From: Catajapyx aquilonaris
Lineage: Eukaryota
DNA length: 64,000 nucleotides
Reading direction: 5' to 3'
Assembly: GCA_000934665.2 (NCBI GenBank)
Contig: JYFJ02000131.1
Span: 62,001 to 126,000 of the forward strand
Shown here: in pieces, positions 8,176 to 64,000 of the stretch
Layout: every line of letters starts with the position of its first letter
Position numbering within the stretch: the stretch's first letter is position 1
Notes under the pieces: model-generated
Databases searched by the model: none
What the model saw: only the letters and a program-made list of their open reading frames with translations
What the model was told of the DNA's origin: nothing
Program-made: the position numbers and the translations under genes

Positions 8176-9782
8176 AGTTTGGTGGGATTTTCTCTCCATT
8201 TCTTCATCTCACAACTCAGTTAAATCTTCCTTTAAAATCGTGCGATGACAGCAGGTAATAAAGCAGCAAAGTGTCGGATGCGATTATCAAAATTCCTGGG
8301 GCTAAAATCCCGGATGCCTTTAAACCACCTAAAAACGCACAATATCGTCGGGTATTCCGTAGGAATGTCGAGATTGCCCGGAAGCTTCCTGCACGCAGAT
8401 TTTGCAGAGTCTTGAGGGCACACAAAGGCTTGATTTATAGCCGCATTTATGCTAACGGAAATGGTCGTAATTGCCGCCTCTTCTGCCTCGTGTCACTGTC
8501 GCGACAAACTGGGTGACACACAAAAACATCGTCTCTAATTCGTGCTCCAACCGGTTTCACTAGTCTCTATATTACCCCCCGGTTCCTTGCAACATTTTAA
8601 TGAATCGTTTCGTCTTTTTACCCTTATCACATATTGGCTAACACCTGCAAACTACTAAGGATACGCCCTCTCATTGCTATGTAGTAGAGCTTTTTACATT
8701 TCTCAATTACATGCAAGGTGAAGTAATACTGCTGCATTTTATTCAATATCGGTCGAATAATTGTACTGGTTAATTTATTACCAACCTAATCGTTCCTGTC
8801 ATATTACGTAAATTTTTCTAATTATCCTGAAATTCAGCTCGTTACGCCAGATGTGTATATTCATGGGTGTAATAAAATGTATATTATCAATCGGTGGACA
8901 TAATAGTGTCCGCATCCAGGACGACATACAGCCTACCTCACTCCCCATACATAATGGTTCGATGTCCACACGGTCGCTTACATAAAATCAGTTTAGTAAA
9001 TCATCGCCGCAATATCACGCCCACAATGTCACTCACCAATGTCACACTTACATGTCTGTAAAAAGTGTGTCTGACCTATACCACTAATTACGTTTGGCAT
9101 GTACTCTGTAATCAGCAAGCCCGTTTGAACCCGAATTGCCGCCTCCAAAAAAAAATTTGCACGTCAATTGAAAATTCAAATCAAGTCACGCTGCAAGGAA
9201 CACGTGTTACGGTCGCGATTTACCGTCCGTGCAGCACTAGTTTTTTTTCGTTGCTTAAAAAAAACGTGCCATTTTGTTTGCACTCCCCACACTTTCCAAA
9301 GCACCGCAACTGGTGTCAAAAGCATAGAAGTTTTCATTCCATTTAATCCGTGTGATCGACAGAAAAAAAACCCCCAGACCACCAAGCCTTGACACAATCT
9401 GCCATTTAGTTAATCCATTACCGTTGCATTTCGACCCAAATTACTCGCTCATTACGTCTCATACCACGCCCACCTCATACTATTTTTTTCTGCATCTATT
9501 TTCACAGCAAGGTATGTGTAGTGCGGAGGTCGTAATGACGACAGAAGTTTGGGCCAAACCTCATTCGGTCGTCCAATTTATTGCGACACAATCTAGGAGA
9601 GCCGGTTCATGACTTTTGATGCAGGTTTGCGATAAGTTGCCAGGTGGCCGAATCGTCCGCCCAAGAATGAGTTAGAGACATTTTCGAAATAACTGACCTG
9701 ATCAAAAAAAATGGTGGACGTTGCACGTGAAGCAAATTAGTGTAGGTTTAATTAGACTTGAAACAATGTGTCCTTTTGTTAC

Positions 9783-9922
9783 CTGCATATCCAGGAGTGC
9801 CTGCGCCTTGGCACCCCTGCTGGCACCGTCAACAGCCCCGGGCCCACGGGCGGCCCCCGATGTGCGTTGGACGTGTCGGTGGACGCCGCCAGCCTGATCT
9901 CAGGCACCTGAAGCTGGCTCAT
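9783..9922 (-). CDS. PDE4: Isoform-specific first coding exon of a long-form cAMP-specific phosphodiesterase 4 (PDE4D3/PDE4B4-type N-terminus); 46 codons + 2 nt
   Basis: GC-rich island in AT-rich DNA. Kozak-like gacgccATG at 9922 with an in-frame upstream TAA (9967-9965). The open frame ends ...PRRRHSWIC, matching the recalled PDE4D3 N-terminus (FPFRRHSWIC|FDV). It is followed directly by the donor CAG|GTAACA in phase 2, the phase expected for PDE4 long-form first exons. Confidence 0.82.
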
Positions 9923-9994
9923 GGCGTCTTGTCCCCACTGTTCACACGTCTCCACTTTTGCCTCTTAAATCATCACCGCACACACAGAAGGAAA
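9923..9994 (-). other. 5' UTR portion of the PDE4 exon, with a possible acceptor (ttcttacag|) and a minimal uORF ATG-ATT-TAA at 9973-9965
   Basis: Minus strand reads ttcttacag|tttccttctg...ATGATTTAA...gacgccATG. The polypyrimidine tract is weak, so the 5' boundary is uncertain. Confidence 0.4.
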
Positions 9995-12900
9995 CTGTAA
10001 GAACCCCCGATCATTCAAACACACGTTGCACCGAAGAACCGGAGACCCCGGATGCACGCGATGCACGATTTCACCAAGATCACGTTAGGAATCAGGTTAG
10101 ATGAGGGGTTGCATTTTTCAGGCTGGCAAGATAAGTTTTTCTTAACAAAAATTGGTGATATCGTATACGAATAGGCCGTTTTTTTTGGAGGTGTGTAATT
10201 ATTATCTAATGCACGTGGGTGATTTAGTGATAAAATGGATCGATATTGTACACAACGTTTACCTGCTGGATACAAGCTGGACAAACTGTGTTATGTAAGC
10301 AGCATAGTTCGTTGATTTTTGAGAGAGTTTTTTTGTATGATATTTCTGGCATATGTATAATTCACAACATTGCGGAAAGTGCGGAATCAAGCTGTTCAGT
10401 CAAAATATGTCGCAACTGAACATGCAATAAAAAACCTAGTTGTGATATTATTTGACAACTTTATTTTCAACACCATGGGTAATATCTGGCTGGCACATGC
10501 TGCGTTTGAAAGGAAATGCTGTCAAAAGCTTCAAAAGAATTCTTAAGTGGTCTTTCGACAGCTTTCATTTTCAACAATTTAAAACTCTTGTATGTGTAAG
10601 GCAGGCATTACCCCCTAGTGCGTCACATAAAAATTCCTTTTTAAAAAGCCTCTAAATATTAAAATATTTTTGCATCCCAAGTTCAGTGAACATTTACCAG
10701 CTGTCAGCTCAGGTACCTTTCACTTAATGGGAGTGGGCGCTCAATATCGCATACAATATCAAATTTTCTCCACTAGAAAAACTTGTAGACCAGCCTCCCC
10801 AACTAGGCCAATCCACTGACCCCAGGTCAAGGCTTGGGCAAGTGGGTCGGTCAATACGCAAGGGGATGGTAAGGTCAAACGCCACTAGCAAAAAAGGGGA
10901 GGTATCCTTTATAATATTTCGTCACACTTGTCCCCGGAAAAATAATGGGGGGGAAAAAATCGTGTGGAGTATTAGGGAGGTGTTGACTAGGCCGCGATTA
11001 CGTGAGGTCAAGTGTGAAAATCATACATCACGAAGAGGGCAGTGGTCTCCTCTCACATGCGAAGGTCCGTGTGCTCCGTTATGCTAATGTTCGAAGCGTG
11101 ACACTCTCACGTCACACTCCTCCACATTATACGAACATATACGTGCAAAAATTTTGTGATTCGCACATATTTCATCCGGTGTGGCCGGCAGCACATGACT
11201 TTCAATCGCCCTCGTGAACTTTAAACGACACGTTATTTCCGTCGCAAATTGTGTACACACGTATCAACTCGCCAGATAAATACACGCGCACATATCCCAA
11301 CCGCACCTTATCCATAATGTACAAAATCGAAACTTGCAATTGCACATATGACCTTGCATCCGGAAAAAAAACCACTGCCCGATAATTATTTTTTTCCTGA
11401 GTTGGTCACACTATCACGCACCTATGGGCCAAGGCACCCCCCTCCACTCTTAAGAGTGATGGTGGGGGGTGCTTGATTTTGAATATATGTTTGGGGGAAA
11501 AGTGGGTTTGGGGGGTTCGCAGGCCCAAGTCCCAGCAGGCACTGCACACGTTTTGTCCTGGCAGCAGTCGAGACCCCCACTGAACTGGCTTCCATTGCGC
11601 CTGCCCTGAACTCTCTGCCTTCCCCCGACACAACTACTCTCATGCCCTGCCCCTTTTCCAGCTGCATGTGTCTGCCAATGAACTTGCTTTACAATCGTTT
11701 CTTACGACCTGCACGATTTTTTTAACAAAAAGTTGTTGCGGTTTTATGAGCCACAGCAAAAAAAAAATATGCATTTTTGAAGGAATGTGCCTGTTCGAAA
11801 TGTGAGTGTTTTCGTCAAATCCTGCACAGATTATGCAACACAGCATTATGTCACAAATTCCTATGTTGTTGAAGGTGTCCATCACCTAAAAATTAATAGA
11901 AATACTCGTAAAACGGTGTGAGATTGTGCCAGCGCATGTTTTGGGGACAACAGTCCGCCCTACCGCAAATTTTTCTCTTCATTGCCAACCTGTAGTGAAA
12001 CATGCCTAAATTCGCTACTTTACGCCTGCTACCACTGTCCAAAAAATACGATGGCACAATCTCACCCAGTTTGACGGGTATCAGATATTGTGAATTTACC
12101 AAGCACTGGATGTGACATCACAAATAGTAGTTGCATGTGTGAGAGACCTTGGCATCCTATAGTTGATGTGCCACATGCCAAGCTGCAATTTATAAATCCA
12201 AATGACATCTTTATTGAACGTAAAAAAAAAATACATTTGCGCGTTACATAATGTTATATAGGACATATTTATCTGGCTCAGGAAGCGATATTGGCAGGTC
12301 ATTTATGCAGCAGCATTTTCGTTCGACTTCGTTTCCGCCCATCATTTACCGTCCACTTTTCAGGTTCTGTCGCAGTCTGCGATGCAGACCCAGGGCCATT
12401 ATCACCAACTTTGGTAAATCGTTACAACTTGCGTCACACGCCAATAGTGAGATAGCCACGTCCGGACGACCTTTTTTTTATATCCGTCGCTAAATATTGT
12501 CAGCAACTTTTTTTTTTTGCTGCTCCACTGTTGGAAGAGAATCAAGCAAGTTTTTTTTTTCCTGTTTCTCTCTACCCCTTACTTATTTCCGCCAGACCTC
12601 GCAGCAAAACTGATACGAAATTGAGGACGAGAATAGACGTGTAAGTCATAAAAGCGGACACAATCCTAATGTGCGAAAGTAAGATTGTTAGCGAACTTTG
12701 TTTCGTACAGTACGACGAAGTTTGAAGAAACTCGACCATTAATATCGCAAAAAATGAGAAACTAAACCTGTAGGTTGCACATTGAGCAACTAATGACATT
12801 TCCGCAATAAATAAATAAATTTTATATGTAAATGTGTGTCACTTGCAGTAAACGTAGCGTTTCTACTAAACGTAAATACAGCCTCTCTCTCGAAAGCTAA

Positions 12901-16276: not shown

Positions 16277-19200
16277 CTGTCAATGGCAGCCATTTGAGGA
16301 AAAGGGAATTTGACTAACTGGCAAAGTCGCAGTGAGAAAAGCCGTTCAGAATCAATTTGGTCACCCCAGGAGATGAAGTATTGGGTTAACTTTCCAGACC
16401 GGAAAATTCAGATGGAGTTCAACCCCTGGGGATACAAGTTACAGTATTATTGGATTAGACTTCGGGAGAGTCTAACTTTGTCTTCTCTTGTACAGAACTC
16501 CACCCTGTTACGTACGCAGAATTAGATGTTTTAGCAAAACACGATCCAGCATGTTCTTTACGATTGAAAAAATAGTACAGTACGTGGGTGAAGTGCACTC
16601 CTGCAGAATAAATAGGTCTAAAGCACCTGAACCGCTCGATGTCCTCGGCAGGTGGGATTCATTACACTCGACATATTACACAACATGATGGGAAAAAATG
16701 TGCAGTGTGTGTCAAAATTCCCGTCCTCTCAAGGTAGGAATGTGTGAAGTGACTAATGGCAAGTTAACCAAGCCTTTGCAACCTTTGAAACTCCTCTGCG
16801 CCATATAATTCCACAAACTCAAAAGTAGTCTCAAAGTCAAGATAATAAGAACAGATGCAAAAAGAAGCCGCTTCGTCCTTGCACTTTGAAAAAGTCCACG
16901 CTAAAAATAGAAAACGCAAAATAAGCAGCCTTTGAACTTTTTTTTGTTGTTAAGAAAAGGAAGTGTGTCCGTCCGCAAAACTCTGGGAGAAATGAAGTCG
17001 CGGGCGTGAAGGTGCGTTATTATGAAAACCCAGAATTGAAAAAAGAAAAATGGGGTTTCTGGGGGGGGGGGGGGGGGGGNGAGTGGAAAATGGGGGGAGA
17101 CCAAATGAGTCTGAGGAAGGAACTAGAGGAACTCCGGCAAGAGATCTGGGGACATGGAAAATGACTCCGGAGGGAAACTGCCGCTTCTTCATTACTGGCG
17201 TTTCCCTCGCTAGTTTCCTCTTCTCGTATAAAATATTATCACGGGAGGGGAAGGAAAGTTTTCAGCAAGGGAGAAGACACAATGGGCTCCTTTACTCAGC
17301 TGATGTCTGGGACCCCTCGAAAAAACTTTTTCCCCAAAAATATGAACGAGTCTTGCTCTAACAGTCTAAGTGATTATTCTTGTACACATGTGTGGTCAAA
17401 CTTACAAAAAGACTCGAAGGTTAATATAATGGTCAGAGTATGAAGCATGCATTAACAATCAGGTTGAACCTATATAACGGATGCTTTGAATCTGTCAGGT
17501 TTAATTACTTTTTCATGCATCGATTATCTGATAGTAAAAATTCATTGCATCAGATGCTGCAGTTAATGTCAAGATAACTGAAGAATATTCTCGAAAACGG
17601 TGATTATTTTCCCCCATTTTCATGCTATACTCTTGAGTTTCGTTTATGCAGAAGAAATGGAGAATAAAATTATTACTGTAGCAAAAATGATCCAATACGC
17701 AGATGTGGAATTGTGAGTCGCACTGTAATCCAATATTCGTAAGAGTTGTAACGAGTATCGAATGACATTGCGATAGAAAATGCCAGCAATACTGTTCTTA
17801 CATAAGCAGAGATTTTTTTTTGTTACATTTCTTCTACTACATTGCAACTGTACACTTTAGTTTACTTTGCGTCTTCATTTCACATCCACATATTCATATA
17901 TTTTTTCAAAACCACTGCCGCACTTTCCAGGTGCAATTATTAGACACAACCTTCCATAAAAATGAAAAAAAAAACTTTCCGTAAACATCTACATCAATTA
18001 TTAGTCCTGTATGATGGATGCACCAACACATCTCCATCCCAAGCTTCCAATCTGCATCCTTTTTGCCTGGTAAAAAGTCCCCTCGCCTCTTCTCTCTTTA
18101 CGTTTCCGCGCCGTATCATATCGATTTCACCAAGCCCTGCACAAACTGGATGGTAAGAGAAGCACTTCTGAGTCAAGAAGAAGGCAAAGGAAAGCCATAT
18201 CCCGTCGTGCTTCGTCTTAATGAGAAAAAGGAAATGACGCCTCGAGACTCGGGCAAACATTTAGTACATTTAAACGGGCCCTAGTCAAATCAAACTGCGG
18301 CGGCCGTTACAGATGAACAAAATGGCCGCCATCCCTATCCGCCAGTTGAAATACTAATGAGAAAGGAGACGGTCCTTGGTGATAATAACGGCTCTCAGTA
18401 ACCAGGTCAGGTTCGAAGAGACTGCAGCTAATAATATAGCGTCAGACCGAGTTTGTTCCTGATCATAAAATTTGAAACTGAGAAACTTTGCAGGTGATTT
18501 TTTTTTTTGGAGGGGAAAAAGATCTCGAGAAAATAAAACCACCAGGAGAGACTCTTGATTCCAACTTCGCTCGTTTAGCAAATTGCCACTATCTTTTCGC
18601 AAGACTCTGCGGTATCTTTATTGCGCAATTTTTTTTCTCCAAGTAAAGAGCTGCAGTTGTACAGTATTTTTTTCTTCTTTATAGAGTCAGCATGTACTGC
18701 TGCCTCGATTCTGGTCCAGTGCCTGAATTTCAATAGCTAGTAAGGGAGCTTAAACCCGAGGGTTTATTGCTCGTTAAAAATACATGTGTGGGTCTATATT
18801 TAAGATGAAGTGCTGATTCGGAGACTTCAGATATGAGAGCACTTAGGCGTGAAATTATGGGTAATTTCAAGGGTACCGCAGGTATTTGTCCTGGCGCTTT
18901 TCCTAGTTCATGCTTCTGGCAAAATGACAGCCGCTTGATTAACGCGTTGCTTTCCATACACCTGCTTGACGTGAAGCAGGCAAAAAAAGGAGCATGACTT
19001 TGACTCGTTCTGATGCGTTCGAATATAGCACTGAATTCCCAATTGAATGCGTCACACGTGTACGTATAGTAGCGGAGGAAATTTTTAAAAATAATAATCG
19101 AAACATCAAATTATGCGAAGTTGATCAAGAATGTGCTTATTGCATTCAATTCCAATATTTTGCAATGTCTAATCAGAATGGTTCCTAATTTATTTTTACA

Positions 19201-20871
19201 ATATAACATCGGAATGTTAATTGAAGCCAGAATATATAGTTTGGACTTAAGTTATATGATGACATGATTAAAATCATCTGCTGAATCACCTCAAGGCCGG
19301 CACATTTCTTCAATCTGACTTTTTTTTATTCAATTCCAATTCTTTTCATGTAACATTACGCTCCATCCAATTACTGCCTTTTCACGTGAACGCCATTTCG
19401 AGCACGTGTGAAAATGCGATTTCTCCACACCGGTTACCAATATAGGCGGAGGAGGAGCCTTTGACGCACTTCTGAACAGACACACTGTAAGACGACATTT
19501 CACTTTCTGAAGGAAGCAGCTTGTCCTATCTAGTCAAATATAAATGGACGGCCGTCTGTCGCCTCCGGTGTATATATAAGGCATACGGTTGACACAACTC
19601 TGGTGACAGTAGTTGGAGATACGGAGAGAGAAAACTTTTGGACTCCCAACTGTGTCTGACCGGAAGATGCGGGCCAAATCCATCATCCTCAAGATGGCAG
19701 CCGCCCAATTCACATCTGATTCACTCAGGACCAGCAGTCATGCCAGACACTTTTTGTGCCTGACACGTCTCTCTTTTTTTGCGCACCGTTACCTTCAACA
19801 CACGTCCTGCACGTTTCGCAAATGTCGACATCAATCTGCGCCTGTTAAATGCGCGCTGTTTTGCCACAATGACCGTCTGGTTTCAAAAGGTGTGTTCTAA
19901 TCTGAACTTCCAATCGACAGGTCTGCAGCCAGGTCAGACATTTCTACATATGAATTGATTACTCTCCACACGTGTATGGCCAAAAGCATAGATTCAAATC
20001 TTGGGATATTGTCGCAACAGACTCCAGAATTTGCGATGCGGTTGCTCTCTCTTAGCGCCCCTGGAAATTTTATTCGAGTCGCCTCGAGGGTGAGGAATTT
20101 TATTCAATTAGCTTCAAAAATGGAAATAAAATTGCGGTTTGAATTGGAAATGGGACGCCTTCAATAATCGAGCACTATTTCATTTAACATTTCACTTAAA
20201 TGCACTCCAAGAACTTTAGTGTAGACAGAGTTTCTCATTTTCAATTATTGCGCCCCCTTTTAATCATCATGCACAACTGACCAGTACGTTAATAAATCAC
20301 ACATTTCATGACCTAATAAAGTATCTTTCCTGTACCACACCGTAAAATGTACTTCTCACGCTCACTTGTTGAAGCTTTTAGCTGATTGCTCCTGTAAATT
20401 ATATTGCACCCTCTCTAATGTGATTGATTTCCATATCACCCTTCCTTAAACCCATCGTTAATCAGAGGTATGAGCAATGTGTTTGAATTACATTCTCCTA
20501 ATGCGAATAACTGTGCAGAAAATAATGCATCCAAAATGCATCAAGATAAGCCCAGGAGGAGCTGCTAGATTGACATCAGTGACCAGAAAGGTTAAGCTTC
20601 CGATATCGGTTTTTGTCGGTAACAGAATTTCGCTATCTGCTGCCATCGGCATGTTTCAGACCACAGACCAAAGCCTTTACTCAATACAATCAGGAAAAAA
20701 AGTATCCTTTTTTTTGGGGACGGATCATACAACGAGGTCAGGCCCAAACCTTGCTCCAAAGATGAGCTCTCGATTGGTCTGGATGAAATTCACGTCCCGC
20801 AGAGCTCTTTCCATCCCAACGATCATTGTGTATTTACGCCGGAGCGAAATAGCTAGCCAAAGGCCGAAGCT

Positions 20872-20916
20872 GGGGTGAGGGGGGGGGGGAGGAGGAGGGG
20901 GAGGGGGGAGGGGGGG
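20872..20916 (+). repeat. G-rich purine tract (G-quadruplex/triplex-capable)
   Basis: Consecutive G-runs interrupted almost only by single A residues. Confidence 0.85.
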
Positions 20917-22976
20917 TGTAAAATTAATTTTGCCACCGATCCAGCTCATTGTTCGCCCTTGGCTGATTAGATAAAGCGCCGAAAGGAAGGAGAGCTATTC
21001 CAAGCCTCGCTTCCCATTGTTGCATTTATTGTTCGTCGACTCTTTGTCCCGTTGGATGTTGCCTCGGTATTTTTTTATTATTATTTCTTTCGCTGCTTTG
21101 ATGATGAAAAAAAGGAGATGATATTTCTGAAGTACCACCTTCTTGAACTTAGTTACTTGGGTAAGATTTGCAGAAAATCATTTTTGAGGTACACATGTTA
21201 TGGGACGGAACCAACTGACTATGATGTGATCCAGTCAGTTTCCTCTGTAGTATTTGCTTGAAATGTTTGCCGAGCATAAAGGAAGCCCGTCAAGAGAGGA
21301 ATTCCCTATAGTGTCCAATCCTAAAGTTGCGTGTTTTCCTAGACATTTGTCCATTAAGTGCCGAGCCTTCAAAAATGTCAAAAGAATGTGATTTTTTTTT
21401 GCATATTATGTGACCTTTTTCTCAGCAAGTGCTCCACATTTTACTGTAACCAGCAGAACCGGATCTACACATGTCATAAATAAATCAGAACACCACATTA
21501 ACGCCATTTGTCACGCTAAGTTGATTCGAGAAGACCATCGAAAAGACAAAAACCTTTGCTGACAATGATCCATCATCAATGATGCAAGCATCCTTTCTCT
21601 GAATGACGCCCCACAATTACAAATGCAGCCTCGACGCTGTAGTTGCTCAATGGTGCGTGCAACATGTCACGTGCTCTGTCAACTTAAATATTTCAGGCCC
21701 CAATAATTCTTTCACCGTCTACTAGGACAACAGGAACTTCGGGTCACGTATCGTATTTACCAAACCCCGACCAGCACTCAGTCACCTGATAAAAATTCCA
21801 TTATATTTCCTGGCAAAGCGTTTTCCCGGATCTTGGGGAAACACTTCGGCGGAATAATAAAAAAAATCGGAAGTCTCCTCATTGGAAAAATCCCCCATAT
21901 TCGCCTTCTGAGAAAGGAAAAGAGTGGCTATACCCGATCGATGTTACCTTCTCCTGTAGCAATACTGTAGGAAGTTATTTCCTGTCTCAAACGCACTGGG
22001 ATTTCCCTCTTCTACAGAAGCTCTTAGTAACAGGTCTGCCCCGCCGGATTATGTTACGGGTTGGCCAAGGAATTTGCAATGAACTTAACTGCACGCAATC
22101 CTGAAGGTGCTCCCTTCCAAGAACGACTTAAGGTGATTAAATTCAAGCAGCGTGCTAACTAACAACGATGTGACTACCACCAATCCAATTTGATGCACTC
22201 TATATACAGCATGATCGACACAAACAGCTCCATGTTGTATTCTTTACGAATATCACCATCATGAAGTGACCTTTTTTCAATCTACATGTATTTGTATGTC
22301 AGGAATTGAATCATTACTAAATCTGCAACAATATCTGATCCAGAATTTTAAGAGAAGAAAATCCGGCCATGCTAGTAGACCTTTCTGTGCAGAATGTAAT
22401 ATTCAGCGTTATTTCAGCCTGTCCCTGTTGACCCCCCATGGTGGTATGCCAGACAGTCGTCTGGCTCGTGGCTTGCCTCAAAGGCTGCTCCACGGACAAA
22501 GGAGTAGCCCATAAAGTACAGGTATTGCAAACATTGGTCTGGGATAATTCCGATCCCAAACATACGCTGTTTATTGCACCATGACGAAAAGAGGCCACAT
22601 GTTACGGGCTAAGCGTTCATCATTCATTTATTTATTATTATCGTACTCTCGCGATATATTATCGATTTATACAAGCAACTGCATATAGACATGCCCCTCT
22701 TCCAGGAAAAATCGACGCAAATTGAAGAATATTGTTCAGAGTACTTGAGGTTGGAGGTTAGAAGCCTTAATAGAAATTGGGGCCCATCCGAGCAGAAATT
22801 CTGGAGTGATATTACTCTATAAACAGAACGAAATCTTTCCTACCATGACTATAAATCTCTCGTTTCATTTAGCGTAAAAAATTAAACTTTGACCTTCTCA
22901 AAAAAGTATCTTATTGCACATCTTGCCCTAATAATGCTCCCTTCTGCTTAATATATGTAGGCCTACATACGCTTAC

Positions 22977-41868: not shown

Positions 41869-44800
41869 GGCCACAAAGCAATGACGATCACCACTTTTGG
41901 ATCAGACCTACAAACTAAACAAAAATTCGAGGGGAAAAAATGGGCAACAATTTGCACTGTACAAGGATATTTTTCGAATTATTCTTGACCTTTTCATGCG
42001 ACAAAATACGGAAAATGCAGCACAAACCCTGCTCCAAAGATTAGAAGTGAAAAAATTTCAGAATAACGACCAAAAGTCACTACGACTTACAGAATAAGGC
42101 AATAAATTGTAAGTCCCATTCCGTTTGGCCTTCCAACTCTCTCAGGCGGACTCCTATATACATCGGTCATTTCCAACATTTATAAACGATGGCACCCCAA
42201 CTATATTTCTCCAATAGCAATTTATTTCATCCTGAAAAAAGTTGGACGCCAGACTTCTTTTTTTTTTGCCGCATCCTATATATTGATCCCATCTAGAACA
42301 AAAGGATCGGTGGGGATTACTAATTTGGGAGATTCTGACTTCACAACACATTTTACGAGGCAAATACAGGGTAATAAGTCAGTATTGATTTGCACCAGTT
42401 TCAGTGCTGGTTTTACTGCCAGTTTCCAGTAGCAACAAGTAGCACATCCTCAAGATTTATGGCTCCTCTTTCGAATAGTTGGCCTAAACGATTCTGCAGT
42501 GTAAAAGCAAAAACCATTCAAACATGTATACTCAGTACACGAAAAAAGCGTGGCTGGATGCCGGGCACACACAAAAGCAGAAAACCCAATACAAGCTTGT
42601 AGCTTTGCACACAAATAGTCTTCTCTTGATGCAATTCACATGCTGTTTAACTATCCTGCATACGAAAAAATAGTAACTTAATTATGGAAGTTGTACCATG
42701 CATTCAACACACGTTCTTTGCGCCCCGGAGTGTTACAATATACAGTATGATACACTGCCTGGCGAGAACTAATAGTTACAGTTGCATTAGCAAAATATGG
42801 CTCCGGGCATGCATAAAATTCAGAGCAGAACGTTAAAAAGAATTGCTGGGCCTCAATAAAGTGCTTCTGTATCCTGTACTTATAACGGTTATGAATTTTA
42901 ATCTTTCTTTCGACCCGGTTATGCTGCAAAGTCGTCGTTCTATTAATAAGGAGCCTATGTATAGAAGTAGCTGTGTAAACAAAAGATTGTGAAGGAACTG
43001 GCTGGCAGATAGAAAACTTTCAGGCCCACCTTGTACAGAGTGTAAGCCACTCTCATCGCCTAACTCGCTGAAATCCAGGTGAAGGGTTTCCTGGGGACTC
43101 CAATCACGTTACCTTCCATCATCTCGAAATCCTTTTCACACAGAAACAGTATCACGAACCTCAGGAGGTCCGACATCGCAAAAACCAAAGAATGAACTGT
43201 GTTATAACCAACAAAACCTGCTGACCATTGGGCAGTGTTTTTGTGTCATAGTACTATAGAAAAATAGATGGCGGCTTGTAAGGAGTCCCGAGATGAGTCT
43301 TTGCCGTTTGAAAAGATGCCAACTGTTGTTGCGAACATCTGCCAGAAATTGGCAGTCTCTTGCAATTTTTTTTCCTTTTTTTCTGGCTGAGTAAAGTAAC
43401 AGGCCGAGTCGATAAACCCACTCAGCAAGAACTATCCTGTTCTTAAAACGTCAACAACCCGCGGGAATCCCACGGAAATAGCTCCAGATCTATAACACCA
43501 ATGTTAACCTATTGCTAGAAATCGATTCCCAAACCGAATCCGATTTCCCACGCCTTTTTACCTTTCTCTGAAACTGTTCCATATCGTCATCAATTTTTTA
43601 ACTAAGAAATATGAGCGTGTTTTTGCACCCGACTTATAAACCACTTAAACATGAGCAATAAAAGCAAGATGTACTACTTTCGCGCTATTAGTTACAGAGG
43701 CTAAAAACACACTTCCGCTACAAAGCTGTATAAGATAAAAGGCCAAGGTTGCTCCAGCTATCTTTGGGGTTCTGCTATATTCCACGGGTGTAACAACTGT
43801 CAACAGTGTTTTACTTTCCACTTCACATTCAGGCCCGTAAATTATTCGCTCACAAATTATTTTGTACTACTCCAAGATATAATGTAGCATATGCAGCACA
43901 TTGCCAAGAAAATTCAGTGTGAAGATGCGTATAAGATACATTGCACTGCTTGACACATTTATGGTGGTTGTGTTGGCGGAACATATGCACGTAAATTCTC
44001 CAAATTCTGACTATGAAATTTATAAAAAATGACGCAAAATTGCATAGACTGGTTGTACAGGATTTTTCGGACCACCCTGTATGTTTAAAGCTCTATAAAT
44101 AGTTATCAGGATATTTCATGCAGCAGTATCATCCAATTTGCTAGGTGCTTATGGTGGGAATGGGAACAGACAAAATATTGTTACAGGCTTGTAGGATGCT
44201 TCCAACCGCGTGTCTATAAATGGTTTATCGATGCCATGAGGCACAACAAAACACTAATAAAATTTTCACTACCCCATAATTACAATACCACTTTTGTTAT
44301 TTTTAACGTTATTGCATTAACCTCACCACCAGAGATTTTATTGCGTTGTAATTCGGCAACTCATGTCCAGCCCATTTCAGTTGCATAAACTCATTTTATT
44401 CAGCAAGTGCAATTTACTTTGCAGTTATGTGCAAATAAAAGTGCGACCAGCTTTTTTCTTATTAAGGTAAACATTATCGCTTTTACTCAAACTTTTTTGC
44501 AGTAGACCCGGGTTGGGGCTTCCGCCTTTCATGTCAACAACCTGCAATCCAATTTCGCGTTCTTTTTGGAAATCCTTGGCAGACACTTCCATTCTTTGTC
44601 TCCCCATATCAACTTAGGAGCAGGTGGTGCGGAAGAACAAAAAATTGCGCAAAAAAAACAAGCTAGAAGCGAGTGAAAATTACCTGTCGAGCTTCATTTT
44701 TATGGCCTATTTGGATGAGTACGAAAACTGAAATTGCCAATCAATGCCCTGAGTAAGAATATTTGAAAATCATGCTGCAAAATGGCACACTGCAGTATTT

Positions 44801-47800
44801 GAATTGTATAATAAGTGCTCTGTACAATCCCAATGCTGTTACTTGCAGGTAACTGCAAATCCAGGCCAAAAATACAACTCGTTTATTAAAATTCGCATGT
44901 ACAATCGGGCATATCCTTATGCATAATTAATTATTTATTTTTGCAGCAGGGGGCAATACTGTAAATTGCGCGAACCGGCCATGCAGGTCGTATAGGGCGG
45001 GATAAACGCAATGTTTAACTCGCTGCGAAGTGTAGCGTCTAAAATTGAATCTACGACTCCGCATAATGCAGGCATGGTGGGAATATACCAATTCCCAAAC
45101 ACATTCTCAGCCTGGCTTCCTTTACGACCCAGGCAGGTATATACGGAGGGCTTCTGGCAATTGAGGTCGATATAGCATAGTGCGCAGGTGCATAAATATT
45201 TTAACCTATGATTTGGACGGATATGTGCCCTGCATTATTCTCCATTGTGGCATTAATTAATAGCAAGTAATATCACTAATTCAATGGACATACAGACTAT
45301 CAAGGTCACATTAGGCGTTTGATGTCTTGTAAATTGCACTAATGTGCATCTAATAAAATAATTTTAACTGCCTCACATTAAACCTAATATGAAGCTTCCT
45401 CTTGCATTTTACAGTGCACATAAAATCGATATACGAGTGCTTATCTTATAGTCTCGACCTTCATCCACAGGAAAAAGCTAGAGGTAGGCAAACTTAGTTT
45501 GAAAATAAAGTGTGCGCAACAAAGTAACAACAGGATATGTGATTTTACTTTCATATCGAATAGGTTGTATGTCCCAAAGGTAATAAGCAGTGCGATGCAG
45601 TGTGTGACTATTAGCCTACACCCTACATATATATATACGTAACGTCTGCGGGGCGAACATGGCTACTCCCACAGGACGCTTTGTCAAAAATAATCGGGCG
45701 GACTTTATGTCCCAACGGACACCCGGTTTTGGAGAATGTCAGTACCGTAACTTAATTAGGCACCATCCATTTTTGTCAAATTTTAGCATCAACATTGAAG
45801 CTCGGTCTGTGTGATTTAGTGGCTGGGATAGTTAATGCTGTGAAGGCAGCCCTAATGGTCGTGTCAAATGAATGGTTCCAACAGTGCAAGAGATAGGGAA
45901 AATGTCACAAATAACAGAGTGAAACACTATACAAGTTTCATGTAACAAAAATATCTCTTTAGGCTATACGTGCAATGGCGATTCAGAGAAAAAAACACTT
46001 CTTTTATAGTAGTAATGGAGTGGTTCGCTCAATTTTCTCTGCAGGTTTGGAACAAATTCCATGGAGAGTTACCTCTAAAACATTAAGGTTTGTGCAGAAT
46101 CGTTGGTCTATCGTTGCTAAATGTTTCATTTCACTTCACGTCTTCCCCTGGAGAGACATACATCGGGAATTGAATAATTTGCTGCGAGAACTATCCTCTT
46201 AGTAATACACTATTGCAGCACTTGACATTGACCATATGACACGGAGGTCTTATTGACAATTTGTTGGCTAAACAACTAAGTGTGTATGAATTGGATGATA
46301 TAGTGATTTGCTCTTGTCAGACAACTCCTCATCAGCTCTAATATTAAAGCAAATGTCTCAAACCATACACACTCACAAGTGAATTGACTAATAGGACATC
46401 GACCGTATAAAACCTGATGAGAGCACAGTGGTTTCCTTTGTACGCAAAAAAAAGAGAGGATATTTTAGGATGGAACAAATTGCGGGCGAATCGGCATCCT
46501 GTCTATCGGAGTTCAAAGCTCGCAGAAAAGGTTAACGAGGTATAACAGCCCTCAATTCGCCGAATGCATGTGTAATTCGTCGAAAAACATGGCGTAATGG
46601 TGCATAATGGCTTAACCCAAGCAGCATCAGGACTCGCACAACCGACTTCTTGTGCTGCTCTGAATAACATAAGGGGACCTTTGCAGCTCACAAAAATACA
46701 TTCAAGAAAATAAACAAGGATTTCTGTCCTCTTCAGGACGTCTCGGATTTTAAAAATGATGATTTCAAAGGAAACTTTGTAACATGTCCAAAAGGTCCTC
46801 TAAATTACCTTCTCGCTGGTATAAATGCATCTTCTCCTCAAGGTCTCTCTATTTTTTCCTGCAGACCTTTCAAAATGTAGGTTTGATTTGCAAAATATAG
46901 AACCTGGCCTAGGTAATTAGTAACTCTCTACAATAGCGAGAGAGTTCATTTTCTCAGTGTTAGTTAGGAGGATTGTTCAAGTAGCTGAATCCCTGCCAAA
47001 ATAATTTGTAGTGCGATCTTTGTGCGAGCTAAAAGTCTACGCTAATTAATCCGCCAGATATATGAAGTGATCCTGAGGGCTTGTGGATTATATGTTGGGG
47101 GGAAGGGGGGGGGGTACTGGAGAGCAACTTGAGTGAATTCATTAGGGAGATTACATCGTCATCACTTCTTTCCTATATATATACCTTTCGTCAGCCTTGG
47201 ATTAGTTTCCGATACCAACATGGTCTTCACCCACTAATCTTTTGCTATTGAAAATACGGTGAATAGGTATTGATTCCCTGGTGTGACATAACAAGGCCAG
47301 AATTTGTTCTAAAGTAAAAGCATGGTCGGACTCACCCGAATTCCTGACACTATAATAAACTACCGACACTTGGCATTTCGCCAGTAATTATTTAATGGCC
47401 ATGCAAACGCAGCCAGTTCCACTGTTAAATTTTTTTGTCTGTGTGCATTGCCGGCAATGCATGGCACAGTCACGCATGATTTATTGCATTCCCCAACCAC
47501 ACAAAATTAGGCAGCTCACAATGACAGTTCCAGTCTACCGTACATCAGTCCTTCCGAAATTGACCACCATCTGCATTTTTCATACCCTCGCCCAGTAAAA
47601 CGACCTCTTTAGCTCCCAGAGAAAAAAAGTGTGCCACCTACCCTCCATATATAACACAGGCCACGTCTGTCTAGATCCACGGATGTCGCCAAGCTTTATC
47701 CTTAAAAAAAGAACCCCCGAATTCTATCAAACGGAGCAACGACCTCAAACTCCATTTTGTTCCTCCAGATGAATCCGAAGGCACTTCTCCAAAAAGGTTT

Positions 47801-47978
47801 GGAGAAACCCCACGGAAAAGAACCACCCTCATTATTATGCGCTTCCACTTTATATACACTCACTTGAAGGCGGTCTTCTTTGGGTGTAGCCGACAGGAAA
47901 CTGGCAAACGGAGCTCAAGGCACGCACTTTCTTCGCACGTCTCAACACCAGCATCCCACTTCAGGGGTTTAAAGGTCT

Positions 47979-48145
47979 CCGGAAGTAAACAGAGGATATG
48001 GCCAACCTTAATGACTTTCTTCTGTCACTTCCACAGCTAGCTCAAATTATTTCAAATATTAAAAAAAAAACAGCAAGATGGCGATAGCACAGTTGTCTCC
48101 AGCCAATCAAAAGCCGCCCTTGAAACTTTCGTGCGTTTTGATTGG
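47979..48145. promoter_or_regulatory. Promoter-like cluster: ETS/FOX overlap, YY1-like motif, two opposed CCAAT boxes
   Basis: ccggaagtaaaca 47979, caagatggcg 48074, agccaatca 48101, tgattgg 48139. A strong minus-strand donor AA|GTGAGT lies at 47863. Confidence 0.45.
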
Positions 48146-48645
48146 ACCCTGATTTCGACCACAATTTCAGCCAGAACAGTCTCTTGCAAAGCATGTAATG
48201 GGCATGAATTGCACCAATGATATCAGTTGGAGAAGAGGATTCTCTCGGAGTTTCTGTAATTCGTTTGTTTCCGTACAAAGTATGCCTCATAACTTTTACG
48301 TGCTCCGACCACACAACCAAACTTTCCTTTTCCAGCCCCCTTTTCCACTCACTGTACATCGAGGAGGCGGTTCTGAATCAATAGCCGTGTAGGTGCCCTA
48401 CAAACCTCTCTCTGCAGGAGTCGCATGCAACTCGTGCTATTTTCTTCATGGCCCCTCTTTTTTGCTTCTATATTGTTCCAACCTGCCTCTCCACACATTA
48501 AGTACTAATTAATGAACCCCAACTGCCTAGAAACAATTTTGTTATTCGCAACTGCGCACTTTTAAAGTGTAACACACACCAAGATGAAAATCAGGTTCAA
48601 TTGAACCGATCTATACATTGCACTATTAGTAGTAATCGTCGATAT

Positions 48646-48658
48646 AGACCTTTGAACT
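48646..48658 (-). promoter_or_regulatory. DR1-like nuclear-receptor element
   Basis: Minus strand AGTTCA-A-AGGTCT. Confidence 0.3.
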
Positions 48659-51600
48659 TGTCGCGATGGGACTGGGAATAAACATTTCCGACGTGGACCA
48701 TGCTGGCTCGATTATTACTAGGCCCTGGTGGTGTCCTTGCTGACACTGACTGACTTTGAAGTATTATTTGCCCGCTCGGCCATGCGAGGCCTCCGGATCC
48801 AACCGGTCGCGAAATCTGACCCTCGTCCCATTTTATGAAAGTCAGAGCCCTGACCGACCTGGTGGGGTGTAGAAAAAGTTATTAAGTCTTATGGCCGAGG
48901 CGAGATGGAACTTTCGCAATTTTAGGGTGGGATGGACGCAAAAACCACGCGACGATAATCGGCAAGGTTTTCGGAGAAACTACGAATATTAGAGAAGGAA
49001 ATAATATCAAACAGCTACGATTTTCAGTAAATATTTCAGGACAATGTCAATTGGAGAAAACTTGCAGAATTTTGCTTTAAGTAATTTAGAGGGTTATGTT
49101 AATGGCTTTAAGTCGTGTGCATATGCCCACTCGGGCAACAAGTGATACTTTAATATTGCAATATCCAAGCCAGCGTCGTAGACGACCTGCGCGGCGTAAA
49201 TATTGCATATTGAGTCCCGCAATATCATGCCTTGCTAACACTGCAAAATTACAGGCTAAGCTTTTCATCTCGAGTAAACCAACCGTTAAACCACAAGGAC
49301 CATCTGCAACCCTTCCGTTTCATATTTATATTATTCTCAAACTCATTTCTGGCCCAAATATGAATATTGATACCACTCTGAACTTCGATAGTAATGTCGA
49401 ATCTAAAATTTATGAACACTATTCAAATATGGACATTTTGATCGGCCGGATCGTTTCTCAATGCATACCAGTTTAGGGATATAATATCGATTAACGCTAA
49501 CTCAATTAGAATAATTACAGGGGTGCTCTAATGAACCAACTTTTCCATTACATTGCAGTTTGGTTGCTGCGGTTAAGGTTGACTGGATTGGAATAGGTCG
49601 AGGGCAGGATATATGTTGCACGAAACACGATAGCAAAAAATAACCATATTGAAGACCAGAAGACAGGTGTTTTACCTACTCGGACATGACATGAATGGAG
49701 CTCCTGCCTTTCTATTACTGTTCGCTCAACAGTCACAGGATCATTAAAATTTCACGTGCATTTTGCCGGATTCCTCTGCCCACATATCCGACCAGGTTAA
49801 TTGTATAAAAAAATGTGCTGCACCAGACCTCGCATGGTGTAACATCATACCTCTGAATTCGGTTAAACCTTTTTTTTGGAGGAAAAGCACGTTTCTCTGG
49901 CTCGACGTGATGAAATTGCCGGGTGTATAGACGTATATACATGAGAGCCAAATATAGCTGGGTGTATCGCTGTAGTATGAGTATTTTAGGACAACTCCTT
50001 GCGGCGATATAGACGTGTCAAAGGCAAAGGCGTTAAAAATAAGTCGAGCGAAATATTTTTAAAGGGCATTTCCCTTCCACGTGAAATCGGGGAAAAAATA
50101 CAGTTTTCTGGATAATTTTTTGTATGCAAGAGATATGTGCAGTGATTGCACTTAAATACTTGAATAATGTGACGAAGTAAGTGCTGGAGGTAACTCTATA
50201 ATATTGCCATTTTAAATTCATGCAGTGCAGGACATTATAATACTGTAAGATTTTTTAATCAATGATATTGATTTTATGTCAGAATGTCACCTTAAGTTTC
50301 ACTTACAGTTTCGTTACTGTAACTTTCAATTTTTTACACGACAGACTGACGGTTTACCATTATGAAAATATTGCAGAACAGCCTATCTTAGTCAGTAACA
50401 CTCAAATGATTAGACACATATTGAGCTCCCAAGAAACCTTACTTAATATTAAGGCTTGCCTGAATTGTCAATCAAAATGCGCGTGCTTGTGCTCAAAATT
50501 ATTATTCGGATTCAAGGTCATTTATGTGCTACTAGGCACATTCATTTTGACAAAAATGCAACTTAGATATTTGGGAGAAGCAAATTGTACCTGTATATAT
50601 AGAATGCCCACGACAGGTATATGTCATTGCTTAAAATATATATATTGCAAGGGGAATATGAGCAGCAAAATACATGCTGCCACACAATGAGTAATAATAA
50701 ATATTCCTCCTCACCGACATTGTCAACTGTTGTCAAGAGACACAACAATATAATCGTAATAATGCTGTACAATTGCAGGAAGTCGCATATTCTAAATTAA
50801 CCAATCATTTTTCCACCTTGCATATGTGGAGTAATAACTCACACTGACTTGCAGTTTGAGTTTGCCTTATTAGCGCAACAGCATAATAAGAATAACACAT
50901 TCAACCCATTGTTATGCCCGTCCTTCTGACACATTTGTTTAGCTGACACATTTTGCCAAGCTAATAAGGATGTCACCCCAGCAACATCAAGCATGGTGTG
51001 TTCCATCGCAACACAACCGACTTCCACTTAAACCCTACAGCAACAATACATTATTTTTAAATTCTCCGAAATATTGCTCAGCTTATTAATTGGGCTTTCG
51101 TGCATTCTAGCCATTCCCCGATACTATTAATCGGAGGACATTACATCACCACTTGTTACATAACTATATTTTTTGGGTGTGTAAAATATACAGCACAAAA
51201 GTTGACCTTACCCGACATTGGCCAGCGTGTGTCGTCTGGTCCTCAGGTATCTGTTGTGATACCTGTGCAGGTCACTGATACTTCCAGACTCCGCTTGCAT
51301 GGTTTCTTCACGCACTACTTTTAGGCGCTCCACGTTGATTTCGGGTATTGGGGACCACGAAAATTCCAACAAATTCCTCACATCACTCCATCCCCGTCAA
51401 CTCCGGGGACTATTCAGATTCTCTCCAAAGAAAAATTCTACAGATATGTTGCACGACTGTTGGCCCTCATTGATTTTGAATGGGGGGGGTAGGGTCAAGG
51501 GTATGGGGAAAAGGGTACTGAGGGTAAGTGTTTGTGACCAGTATTCCCCCACCTAGATGTGTCACTTATGCGGTCCAGCGGCCATCATTTCTGGGGTTGT

Positions 51601-54600
51601 TATACCCCATTTTTATAGCCCTCAGGGGGCCATGGACGAGCAGGATGTCCTCCCACGATGGTCACCATTTGTCGATAATTTTTTTTTTTATATCAGCTTG
51701 TTGTCGAGTCACTGACCGGGTGAGTTAACTATTCTAAAAAGGAGTCTGGGCACTATAGAAGCTCCCGCGTTGCTGTGCGGTAGTATACTGAAGGGTGGGC
51801 CTATGAGGGCGGGAGACCGAAAAGGAACTCCGCATGCGTCCCATAACCCTCCCCCAACCCCTCTACTTCCTACACCCCAGCAAGCCCATGGATCCGCACT
51901 ACGACAAAGCCCAATCTGGAATTCGGGGGTACCCCTCCCCCCCTACCCTATACCTAAAAACCCATAGTACTGCATCCCTTCTGCCAGAGTATATGCCTGA
52001 GATACGAGCCTATTTCATAGCTCGGTTGTCAAATTCCTCTGGAGTGACAATAGCTGGATCTGGGACATGCTATACTTATAGCAAGGATTTTGCAGGGACG
52101 CACAATAATTGGGCATGAGCCGGTTGCGACGATGAAATGTCATCAAATATTTACGGACAAGTACTGCAGCGTATGAATTATGTGGATGACCTGTTTTCAC
52201 CTACAATGCCAGTGTATGGAGTTAAATCGGTTTTTATTTCGGTGGGTAAGCATAAAAGAAACTTTTTCATTGCCTATTTAATCCAATTCGCTGCGGCGGC
52301 AAGTCGAAATCATATAATAGAGGCGGTTTGTAAATTATATTTGTCCCATAGTCATAAACATCACAGGAAGTGCTGGAACAAAAGCAAACAAACTAACAAC
52401 ATTGCCTATTTCATTCGATGCATTATGGCTCCCAATGAAAGTGGCAATCAGAGCACAGAGGCTGTTCAAATTCATATCTGCCATAAAATTATTGTAAATG
52501 TCACAGGAAGTTACATGCCCAGTTATTTCACTGTAAATGTCGATAATGTCACACTCTATTTAATGTCATTAAAATAAGGCAATTTTAAAATCTCCAAACG
52601 ACGTGACTTCTCTGAAATATTCTCAGCTGAGAATTTCTAACGACCAACTTATCCATTTAGCAGCCACGTTCTTATACGTATAAAACTTGGCTGCTGGAAG
52701 CATGAAGCTCTAGAAACGTGACACTACACTGAATTCGCGAATTATGAAGGCAGTTTCCTAATTGGTATCGCGTTCCTAAAAAGACGCTTCTAATTATACT
52801 CCAGGCGACTGTTGCCCGCTCAGACAATGGATCACGATTAAAGCCCATTGATTCGCATACCTTTGATACAACTTGTTTCAAAAATATGAAGCAATTTTTT
52901 AATTATTTCGCCACTTGAAGCCCAGTGATCTTTGGAGTTTGCTTACTTCATATTCATTATTATAGAATTATTTCAAAGGTTTGTCACCCGTGATCTTATG
53001 CTATAATAAAGGGACTACCATTGCTATGTACAGTTGTACACGCAAAAATTTGAGATCACCAGTTTTCATTCTCAGGGGTTGTAAATGAGTGAGTTGATTC
53101 TTGCAATCTGGACACTTTCATGGACATCATTTGGGTCTGCTCCAATGACCATGCGCCAGAGCAGCATCTCCTCCACTTTACTGCCATGCAAAATCCACTG
53201 ACACTGGTCCCCACGCCCCATCCATTCCCCCCAGCACCCAAAAACCCAAACCCTCACGTAATCCCCACCGGGTATCGATCTCGAATGAAGCCCCGCGATA
53301 GTCCCACCTGCTCCGCCATATATTACAGTCAAAAAAAGGCACCTTTTCATTCCTCCGCACTATAGGCCTATATTTTAAGCAACATCCGAACAGCTTTCCT
53401 AACTTTGCACGAAAAATCGACTAACTCAAAAACTTCGAAGCAAATTGCCCAAGTTTTTAATTAGGTTTTTTTGCCCCTCTCATCGTATATGTGCAATACA
53501 CGTGGGAGTATACCGAGCTATTTTAAGCGTAATTATATCGTCGTATGCAAATGAGAGACTGACTCATATTATTAATATATTCAGTACAGTTGCAGTCGAC
53601 CAGTGCAAATATAATCTGTATAACAAGCCCAGCCAACTGGTAGTGATTTTGATGAGAAAGTTAGTTCCGTCTGAGTTAATGTGTTGCAGGCAAGTAATAT
53701 GAACTAGTTTTTGTATAGTATGTTCTCTCAAAAGGGAGTTCCCAGTTGCCTTCTGTGTTCTGCTCGAAAAGCTGCTTTCATCTGGACGGGTCATTTGCGG
53801 CCCGGTTACATTGTTCAGACCCCTGGGAGGCATGTAAGGGACAAGAAGGGGGGCTCTGCTCAGCATCCTTTCAGGAGCAAACTTGGCAATTAATCTTATT
53901 AACCGAGTGCGCAACAATCACCCAGGCGGTCCTAACCATTAATTGAAAACGCATTGTCATCAGGCCTCTAATGGCGTGCGAAAAAAAGCCTGCGGGTGAG
54001 GGGGGGTTGTAATGCAAAAAAACGGATAATAGCATTCGCATGTATCAGCATAAAAGCCTGAAGCCAATGTAACAATTGACAGGGATGTACTTGATACACG
54101 CACATGTTGGAGCGGCCTTTCAAAATTTCCAAAATAAGTTCGGTGCTCGTTTTACCGTGGAATCGACACCTCCTGTGGTTTGTGAGCGTTGCCCGGGAAA
54201 ATCGCTTGTTTAATGTAGTCCCCACTGAATCCCACATTGCTCGTTACTGTTTAGATCATTTATTTGTACGGCTTGGTTTGAGGGTTGGTCTAAACTGGCT
54301 GTCGGTTGTCAACCCCCTTTTTTAAATGCAGCGGCTTATTGACGCTTTCGGACCTAGTTGGTGTGACAAAATCGTCGCATTAACACAACATGTATGATGT
54401 GCCAGTTTAGCAATCAACCAGACTTGACTTCTTTAAAAAAAATCCCATCACAAACGGTTGTGCGCAGAATACAAAGGTTGACAACCAGTAATTAAAAATA
54501 ACCAGTGTTCAGTGCCAAGGAGTTCCAATGGCACTGCGTATATGATGGCCTCGTGGTTTTTTTCGTAAACAGAGCAGGAAGTTTCGGAGTGTGTGATTAG

Positions 54601-57600: not shown

Positions 57601-57721
57601 TACAACATGTGCTGGTTAACTTCAAAACATCATGTTTTTTTTTCCCCACACTAAAATTTCAAACAACCTCACATATCCACATACCCACATCACAAAAACA
57701 TCACGAACATGCCGATAATAA

Positions 57722-57796
57722 TGGCCGAGGTTTCGAACCCCGCCCTTCCGTTTCGCTCATTGTAACTGACGCCATGTCCGACCAATTAACCGTACC
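57722..57796 (-). pseudogene. Degenerate tRNA-like sequence / possible SINE head
   Basis: The minus strand has a B-box T-arm cgggg-TTCGAAA-cctcg, a loose A-box-like tacggttaattgg and a weak anticodon-arm-like stem. The acceptor stem does not pair. Confidence 0.3.
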
Positions 57797-57846
57797 TGAT
57801 AAACGCCAGAAAATTCGTCCAACACGCTACGTTAAAACAACTAATA

Positions 57847-57906
57847 TTCACTCCTGTTTTCCTTATATACCAGCCGAATGGTACTATTGAAACTAACAGG
57901 AGTGAA
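57847..57906. repeat. 60-nt imperfect hairpin with 12-bp perfect terminal arms
   Basis: Terminal arms ttcactcctgtt ... aacaggagtgaa; inner tacca-gccgaa-tggta. Confidence 0.75.
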
Positions 57907-63900: not shown

Positions 63901-64000
63901 AGTGCAATCAATGCTCTTCCTTTGGAGCTGGCGTGTTCCAATGGTGGGTGTCCAATGATCGATCTGGCCACCATGCTGCAGGGACACTGTGGGAAAAGTG

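Follow-up and report, generated by a model that had tools for sequence, protein, structure and literature searches.

A probable alternative first exon of the PDE4/dunce gene in Catajapyx aquilonaris, with a PDE4D3-like N-terminus

Introduction

Does a short open frame ending in RRRHSWIC, lying on the minus strand of an apparently invertebrate contig, encode the isoform-specific N-terminus of a PDE4 (dunce) phosphodiesterase, and if so, how old is this type of N-terminus? We address this for a stretch of 64,000 nucleotides of the Catajapyx aquilonaris genome, analysed as a whole and referred to here as the window.

The N-termini of PDE4 isoforms decide at which cellular site cAMP is degraded. 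In the available text of Johnson et al. (2010, PMC2929239), they are described as governing localisation and partner binding with catalysis unchanged, and the available text of a recent preprint assigns the same role to the N-termini of Dunce isoforms (bioRxiv 10.64898/2025.11.29.691281). PDE4D3 is the textbook PKA-regulated, scaffold-bound isoform: residues 1-14 of the human protein end in RRHSW (PMC2173774, available part), and phosphorylation of Ser13 by PKA enhances binding to mAKAP (PMC7770493, available part). A full-text literature search, with many subscription papers outside its scope, retrieved PMC2929239 as the only evolutionary study of PDE4 N-termini. In its available text, Ciona is the sole invertebrate sampled, the PDE4D3 exon is conserved 'primarily in mammals', and PDE4 N-termini are held to have arisen by 'progressive independent incorporation'. 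The same search found no paper noting a conservation of the RRRHSWIC block between arthropods and chordates.

Structure of exon A

The coding part of the putative PDE4/dunce alternative first exon, called exon A in the following, was delimited from sequence and homology to 9783..9922 on the minus strand. It comprises 46 codons (9922-9785) followed by the AG of a split codon at 9784-9783, and translation of 9922-9785 on this strand yields the peptide MSQLQVPEIRLAASTDTSNAHRGPPVGPGLLTVPAGVPRRRHSWIC, which starts with MSQLQVPEIRL and ends with VPRRRHSWIC. The start codon at 9920..9922 (minus strand) lies in the context GACGCCATGA. A first, sequence-only reading of the window had called it a Kozak ATG, which agrees with the G at -3 and the CC at -2/-1 but not with position +4, where an A stands in place of G. 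An in-frame TAA is found 15 codons 5' of this ATG (9965..9967, minus strand; translation ...CAVMI-stop-EAKVETCEQWGQDAMSQ...), and the stop-to-stop ORF containing exon A spans 9782-9964. This TAA closes the frame, and the ATG is therefore the first possible start in the contiguous DNA.

At its other end, exon A runs after ...TGC AG into a GTAACA donor in phase 2 (9777..9782, minus strand), the same phase as that of a second first exon, exon B, described below. The donor, CAG/GTAACA, follows the consensus at +1 to +4 and departs from it at +5 and +6. The RRRHSWIC motif (9785..9808, minus strand) is invariant across both peptide alignments that we made, and this block is common to amphioxus PDE4D and mammalian PDE4D3. 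Within it, Ser43 (codon 9796-9794) occupies a basophilic-kinase, PKA-type R-R-x-S context. The base composition of exon A, with 68.6% G+C, stands apart from that of the window (41.3%), whose richest 250-base bin reaches 57.6%. Exon A hence combines an own ATG in a frame closed upstream, a peptide ending in R-R-(R)-H-S-W-I-C, and a GT donor in phase 2 one split codon past the Cys, which fits an x-FDVENG acceptor; these are among the features by which its exon class can be recognised.

The in-frame stop, the 46 open codons up to RRRHSWIC and the phase-2 donor reported by the sequence-only reading were thus all recovered on the minus strand. That reading had also remarked that the exon was absent from the ORF track, which is plausible, as the ORF list gives a 47-aa ORF (9779-9922), under the usual cut-off of 60 aa. 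The exon was accordingly "hidden" from this track, but NCBI pipelines have already annotated members of its class in many arthropods.

The position of the protein start bears on a different reading of the same frame, namely that the transcripts start further upstream and include exon A as an internal or 5'-extended exon, with the protein beginning elsewhere or with non-coding leaders placed upstream. Such transcripts would be compatible with an annotated Leptinotarsa isoform (P0027) that carries 22 extra residues before the aligned Met. Yet the in-frame TAA lies only 15 codons upstream of the ATG, homologues from wasps (MSSLQVPELRL), P0048 (MSQIRIPELRL), Clastoptera and Bemisia all begin at the aligned Met, and none of the compared PDE4 proteins joins the peptides of exon B and exon A. 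A non-coding leader, moreover, would leave the protein unchanged. We consider this arrangement very improbable, and treat exon A as a first coding exon with its own start in what follows.

Similarity to PDE4/dunce N-termini

When the 46 residues were searched with phmmer against 1.84 billion representative proteins, 10 matches were obtained at E<=0.001, the best with an E-value of 9.5e-10. Eight of them were fetched and inspected (P0003-P0009 and P0011; P0010 and P0012 were left out), and PRRRHSWIC is present in all eight, while six (P0005-P0009, P0011) additionally share the start M-[SA]-x-[LF]-[QK]-[VI]-P-E-L-R-L and the LL.VP block. Those with names come from wasps (Vespula and Mischocyttarus) and from the moth Tuta absoluta, are listed as 'hypothetical proteins', and correspond to short ORFs that read through into the would-be intron. 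An earlier word-indexed search with the 46-mer had returned a single match at E 2.0 (P0002), which proved to be a true homologue. One entry in the cluster of P0005 (P0015) is an unrelated 704-aa protein lacking any PDE4 domain and was set aside as a table artefact; a search of the ESM Atlas gave no usable match.

The link to PDE4 came from longer proteins. A profile built from six exon peptides gave 64 matches at E<=1 among 8000 scored candidates, 11 of which contain the PDE4 UCR domain (PF18100), and nine of these 11 the catalytic domain (PF00233) as well. The matches with PF18100 include proteins named 'phosphodiesterase dunce isoform X5' in Leptinotarsa, 'isoforms N/G-like' in Limulus, '4C-like isoform X3' in the tick Ornithodoros, and 'cAMP-specific 3',5'-cyclic phosphodiesterase isoform X6' in Tribolium madens and Sitophilus. 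In these full-length relatives, the peptide forms the extreme N-terminus, ...RRRHSWIC-[G/S]-FDVENG, followed by QRRESFLYRSDS (UCR1) and the catalytic domain. The PDE4 identity proposed from the sequence alone is borne out by this match, since the corresponding stretch in full-length PDE4/dunce proteins is an isoform-specific N-terminus placed immediately ahead of FDVENG and UCR1.

With residues 1-115 of the Clastoptera protein as query, 2068 matches were found at E<=0.001, the best 120 of which were listed. Among 208 proteins compared overall, 117 show an FDVENG-like junction together with RRESFLYRS, and represent long-form PDE4. The motif RRHSW[IM][CGA] is found 0-1 residue before the FDVENG junction in 21 of these 117, and the remaining 96 carry other N-termini on the same common exon. 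The residue linking the motif to FDVENG in the 21 carriers is G in nine, S in seven (G or S in 16 of 21) and missing in five. Isoforms X2 to X10 of Tribolium madens display nine different N-terminal endings on one common exon, which is the signature of alternative first exons.

The relation holds in the reverse direction. An HMM built only from the pre-FDVENG N-termini of eight PDE4 proteins, all containing RRESFLYRS, was run against the 2871 stop-to-stop ORFs of the window of at least 15 aa, and hit the exon A ORF with an E-value of 4.1e-16 (56.7 bits) versus 3.6 for the next best. With tblastn, 22 of 116 pre-FDVENG N-termini of PDE4 proteins match the window at 9785-9931 with E<0.01, and these 22 consist of all 21 motif carriers plus P0046. 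Twelve columns that are invariant across nine homologues are intact in exon A (P7, E8, P28, P38 and R39-C46), and residues 12-27 are poorly conserved and of low complexity. The residue after WIC is R or G in the unspliced read-through ORFs, and S, G or nothing, but never R, in the spliced proteins. This pattern follows from a conserved phase-2 donor (AG/GT or GG/GT) if the acceptor begins with a pyrimidine; the window has the AG/GT version of the split codon at the exon A donor.

A short ORF invites the suspicion that the frame is open by chance and its RRRHSWIC fortuitous, all the more as 64 kb hold many frames of 47 codons. The gap between the profile E-values of 4.1e-16 and 3.6 for exon A and the next of the 2871 ORFs speaks against this, as does the similarity extending beyond the 8-mer into the LQVPE[IL]RL block and LL.VP, and the presence on the same strand, 41 kb upstream, of a PDE4 first exon that is spliced (see below). 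The profile score, the tblastn matches and the splicing of exon B together effectively refute a chance origin.

A second first exon and its splice junction

A second alternative first exon of PDE4/dunce, exon B, was found 41 kb upstream of exon A on the same strand. Its coding part (51212..51300, minus strand) encodes MQAESGSISDLHRYHNRYLRTRRHTLANV plus the GG of a split codon, with the DNA reading ACC ATG ... GTC GG/GTAAGG and the last exon base at 51212. Five of the 116 dunce/PDE4 N-termini used as tblastn queries match it (51300-51214), with E-values from 4.9e-14 to 2.7e-7. It is 83% identical to MQAEQGSIGDLQKYHNRYLRNRRHTLANV-R-FDVENG of Clastoptera (P0106), and also resembles N-termini of Tribolium madens (isoform X10), Atheta (X7), Cacopsylla and Melanaphis. 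The peptide has the pattern MQAE...RRHTLANV, and we take the classical dunce protein to begin with an exon-B-like MQAE N-terminus of this kind.

The donor of exon B (GTAAGG, phase 2, 51206..51211, minus strand) is seen in use in one contig from X5, a small run (32 million letters) with the same species label, from another study and of a kind that is unrecorded, which we compared with the DNA run X1 over 44001-64000 of the window. One X5 contig (235 letters; record 9) matches 51212-51417 and then continues with 29 letters that are absent from the window. Read on the minus strand after the GG of exon B, these letters give G-FDVENGSSP in a hand translation of the consensus, the junction being carried by this single contig at a depth of 3.2; an X1 DNA contig passes 51212 unbroken into the intron. 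A second X5 contig covers 51464-51805, and the two contigs together (51212-51417 and 51464-51805, with a 46-base gap between them) delimit an exon B region with a probable 5' UTR at 51212..51805 on the minus strand. At position 51482, the X5 contig is one letter short within a C run, which may be a polymorphism or a homopolymer error. According to these data, transcripts of exon B carry a leader of no less than about 500 bases and are spliced exactly at the predicted GT to an FDVENG exon.

The junction letters also give the first base of the common acceptor, which is T. Joined to this T, the AG at the end of exon A makes AGT (Ser), leading to a predicted ...RRRHSWIC-S-FDVENG. The same WIC-S-FDVENG form is seen in Leptinotarsa, Clastoptera, Sitophilus, Dendroctonus, Hyalella, P0048 and P0099. 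Since exon B is spliced to an FDVENG sequence that is absent from the window, exon A sits inside the corresponding intron, on the coding strand.

The runs that cover 9400-10400 are four DNA runs of one sample, none of them on record as RNA, and next to none of the sequence words of exon A occur in run X5, the run in which exon B is seen spliced. This raises the possibility that exon A is a relic, a RRRHSWIC first exon no longer transcribed or spliced after loss of its promoter or weakening of its donor, which would fit both the want of RNA cover and a donor (GTAACA) weaker than that of exon B (GTAAGG). A relic, however, is expected to gain stops or to lose its ATG or donor, whereas in exon A the start codon, the open frame and the phase-2 donor are preserved, together with each of the 12 invariant columns, and the G+C content is coding-like. 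We therefore hold a relic to be unlikely, if somewhat less so than an internal exon, and are confident that exon A is a functional alternative first exon of PDE4/dunce. That it is transcribed and spliced in Catajapyx aquilonaris is predicted here from its sequence.

The remainder of the window

The initial reading had taken the whole window for 5' intron and promoter space of PDE4. This stands for 1-51805, by virtue of exon B being spliced, from the same strand, to FDVENG, and at least 51.8 kb of the window can thus be annotated as 5' gene space with two PDE4/dunce alternative first exons. A six-frame motif scan of the window revealed no FDVENG or RRESF context, hence no UCR1 exon. Rfam gave no matches within the window, and the repeats around exon A are only short pairs at chance level. 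Pfam, run on 32 of the 34 stop-to-stop ORFs of at least 110 aa (the two containing an N were left out), detected no family above the cut-off, with a single sub-threshold match (ABC_trans_CmpB). Besides exons A and B, no coding signal was found in the 64 kb by these Pfam and Rfam scans.

At E<=1, first-exon classes of other types (RRRTTGS, RRNSDF, RRRGWTVV, PRSDSD and others) matched nothing in the window but low-complexity proline runs. One weak look-alike at 44540-44602 on the minus strand, ...GFPKRTRNWIAG (PKRTRNWIAG), was rejected as probably due to chance: its E-values range from 0.06 to 0.8 among the 116 queries, no start codon was seen in frame by eye, and its GT is in phase 1. Two simple-sequence frames rich in proline or glycine, at 20861-20925 (minus strand) and 17051-17107, draw low-complexity tblastn matches and are not exons. 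At 55675-55799, there are two X1 contigs of 125 letters, one of which differs at four positions (55705, 55726, 55747, 55769) and has about one third of the depth; the assembly graph seems to have been broken here by a second allele or by a repeat copy.

The ratio of observed to expected CpG in the window is 0.83, and vertebrate DNA is CpG-depleted. Together with the arthropod affinities of both exons, this agrees with the impression of an invertebrate genome gained at the outset.

Distribution and age of the exon class

Among insects, spliced models with the RRRHSWIC exon were found in Coleoptera, in Hemiptera and in one hymenopteran (Microctonus, filed as 'hypothetical protein'), and other Hymenoptera (the wasps Vespula and Mischocyttarus) and Lepidoptera are represented by read-through ORFs only. 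Crustaceans contribute a spliced model in Hyalella and read-through ORFs in Daphnia and Armadillidium; chelicerates contribute spliced models in Limulus, Tachypleus and the tick Ornithodoros, and read-through ORFs in the tick Rhipicephalus and the mite Sarcoptes. In amphioxus, the class is present in 'PDE4D'. The protein search beyond the window that had been suggested for this peptide thus recovered the class in insects, crustaceans, chelicerates and amphioxus, and this distribution supports the proposal that it predates the vertebrate PDE4A-D duplications. The sequence comparisons even support an age greater than the one first put forward, with the class probably reaching back to a common heritage of protostomes and chordates.

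In Tuta absoluta, two read-through ORFs (P0003, P0004) contain head-to-tail repeats of the RRRHSWIC exon, as a unit of about 53 residues; one ORF holds three full copies and a fourth that has lost the motif, and the other two copies. This arrangement points to the first exon having been duplicated in tandem.

The signature block does not vary between insects, crustaceans, chelicerates and amphioxus, which suggests that the PKA-regulated, scaffold-bound mode of PDE4 arose hundreds of millions of years before the vertebrate gene family. In its strongest form, the proposal would be that the PDE4D3-type N-terminus (RRRHSWIC with a PKA-type serine before FDVENG) is an ancestral bilaterian regulatory module, which predates the split of protostomes and deuterostomes, was kept in arthropods, amphioxus and vertebrate PDE4D, and was not acquired in mammals. 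Our own judgement on this is evenly divided. If true, it would contradict the picture published in PMC2929239, as given in the available text of that paper, and the docking of a long PDE4 isoform under PKA control would represent a feedback device of great age. A further, undescribed docking block (M-S-x-LQVPELRL ... LL.VP) would then be an addition made in arthropods. The question of an ancient PDE4D3-type regulation is testable in genetically tractable arthropods.

Exon A itself is largely ordinary, as its class is already in public annotation and is visible by BLAST with PDE4D3, and its novelty is low. The pre-vertebrate age of the class, by comparison, seems to have gone unremarked in the searchable literature, and the novelty of this evolutionary point is moderate.

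Proposed function

We propose that a single PDE4 (dunce) gene would have a promoter at some point upstream of 9922, and that the transcripts initiated there would have exon A in first position. Exon A would be spliced from its donor at 9783/9782 to a common exon beginning T-TTC-GAC-GTG (x-FDVENG...), which is expected beyond the left end of the window and would be followed by the coding regions of UCR1, UCR2 and the catalytic domain. Translation would yield a long-form PDE4 whose isoform-specific N-terminus comprises 47 residues and reads ...VPRRRHSWIC-S-FDVENGSSP.

By analogy with PDE4 isoforms, this N-terminus would set localisation or partner binding rather than catalysis. Ser43 in RRRHSWIC is a candidate PKA-type phosphoserine, which may be equivalent to Ser13 of mammalian PDE4D3, and the LQVPE[IL]RL and LL.VP blocks might serve as further contact sites. 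From this analogy, we infer that the exon A N-terminus may have a docking function controlled by phosphorylation. Many first-exon peptides of PDE4/dunce end with a basic cluster and a Ser or Thr just before FDVENG, such as RRRTTGS, RRNSDF, RRHTLANV, RRRGWTVV and, in fish PDE4B, RRRFTVAHTC. It may be that long-form N-termini generally carry a basophilic-kinase site next to the junction, and that such a site is not peculiar to the PDE4D3 type.

Comparison with known PDE4 systems

According to the available text of the preprint cited above (bioRxiv 10.64898/2025.11.29.691281), Drosophila dunce has several promoters and at least eight transcripts, which fall into five N-terminus classes. The locus in Catajapyx aquilonaris resembles it in that several first exons are spread over tens of kilobases and spliced, or in the case of exon A predicted to be spliced, to common UCR1 exons, the window holding two of them, 41 kb apart.

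The closest counterparts of exon A are RRRHSWIC isoforms of arthropod PDE4/dunce, namely those of Leptinotarsa (X5, P0027), Tribolium madens (X6, P0044), Sitophilus (X6, P0056), Dendroctonus (X5, P0049), Clastoptera (P0028), Hyalella ('PDE 4D X4', P0103), Ornithodoros ('PDE 4C-like X3', P0057) and Limulus ('isoforms N/G-like', P0035). Exon A shares with them the start M-S-x-L-[QR]-[VI]-P-E-[LIV]-R-[LV] and the end LL.VP...PRRRHSWIC, the split codon after the Cys (AG + T = Ser), the predicted place before [G/S]-FDVENG, and the condition of being one among several alternative N-termini of one gene. The arthropod forms are annotated spliced models, whereas exon A is known from genomic DNA. Overall identity to the full-length forms of beetles and wasps amounts to 44-48%, with differences in the poorly conserved middle, and exon A reads LLTVP as in ticks where insects have LLLVP.

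In amphioxus, PDE4D of Branchiostoma lanceolatum (P0187, P0188, P0190) and of a B. floridae x hybrid (P0189) has the N-terminus MVPIQGSHGCVRRRHSWIC-FDVENG, which ends in ...VRRRHSWIC directly before FDVENG and is identical to exon A at 9 of 11 aligned residues. Unlike exon A, it lacks both the LQVPELRL and the LL.VP block, and its Cys is followed immediately by Phe. The longer N-terminal extension that had been noted for exon A is evident here, with 46 residues versus 19 in amphioxus.

Mammalian PDE4D3, compared over residues 1-14, has the same R-R-H-S-W core with a PKA-type serine near the end of an alternative first-exon peptide, but the peptide of exon A is three times longer and reads RRR rather than RR. 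The closest relatives of both exons, as judged from the sequence searches, are arthropod dunce/PDE4 proteins and not members of the vertebrate PDE4D paralogue. The likeness between exon A and PDE4D3 is thus probably one of resemblance and common descent of the exon class, rather than of membership in the PDE4D paralogue.
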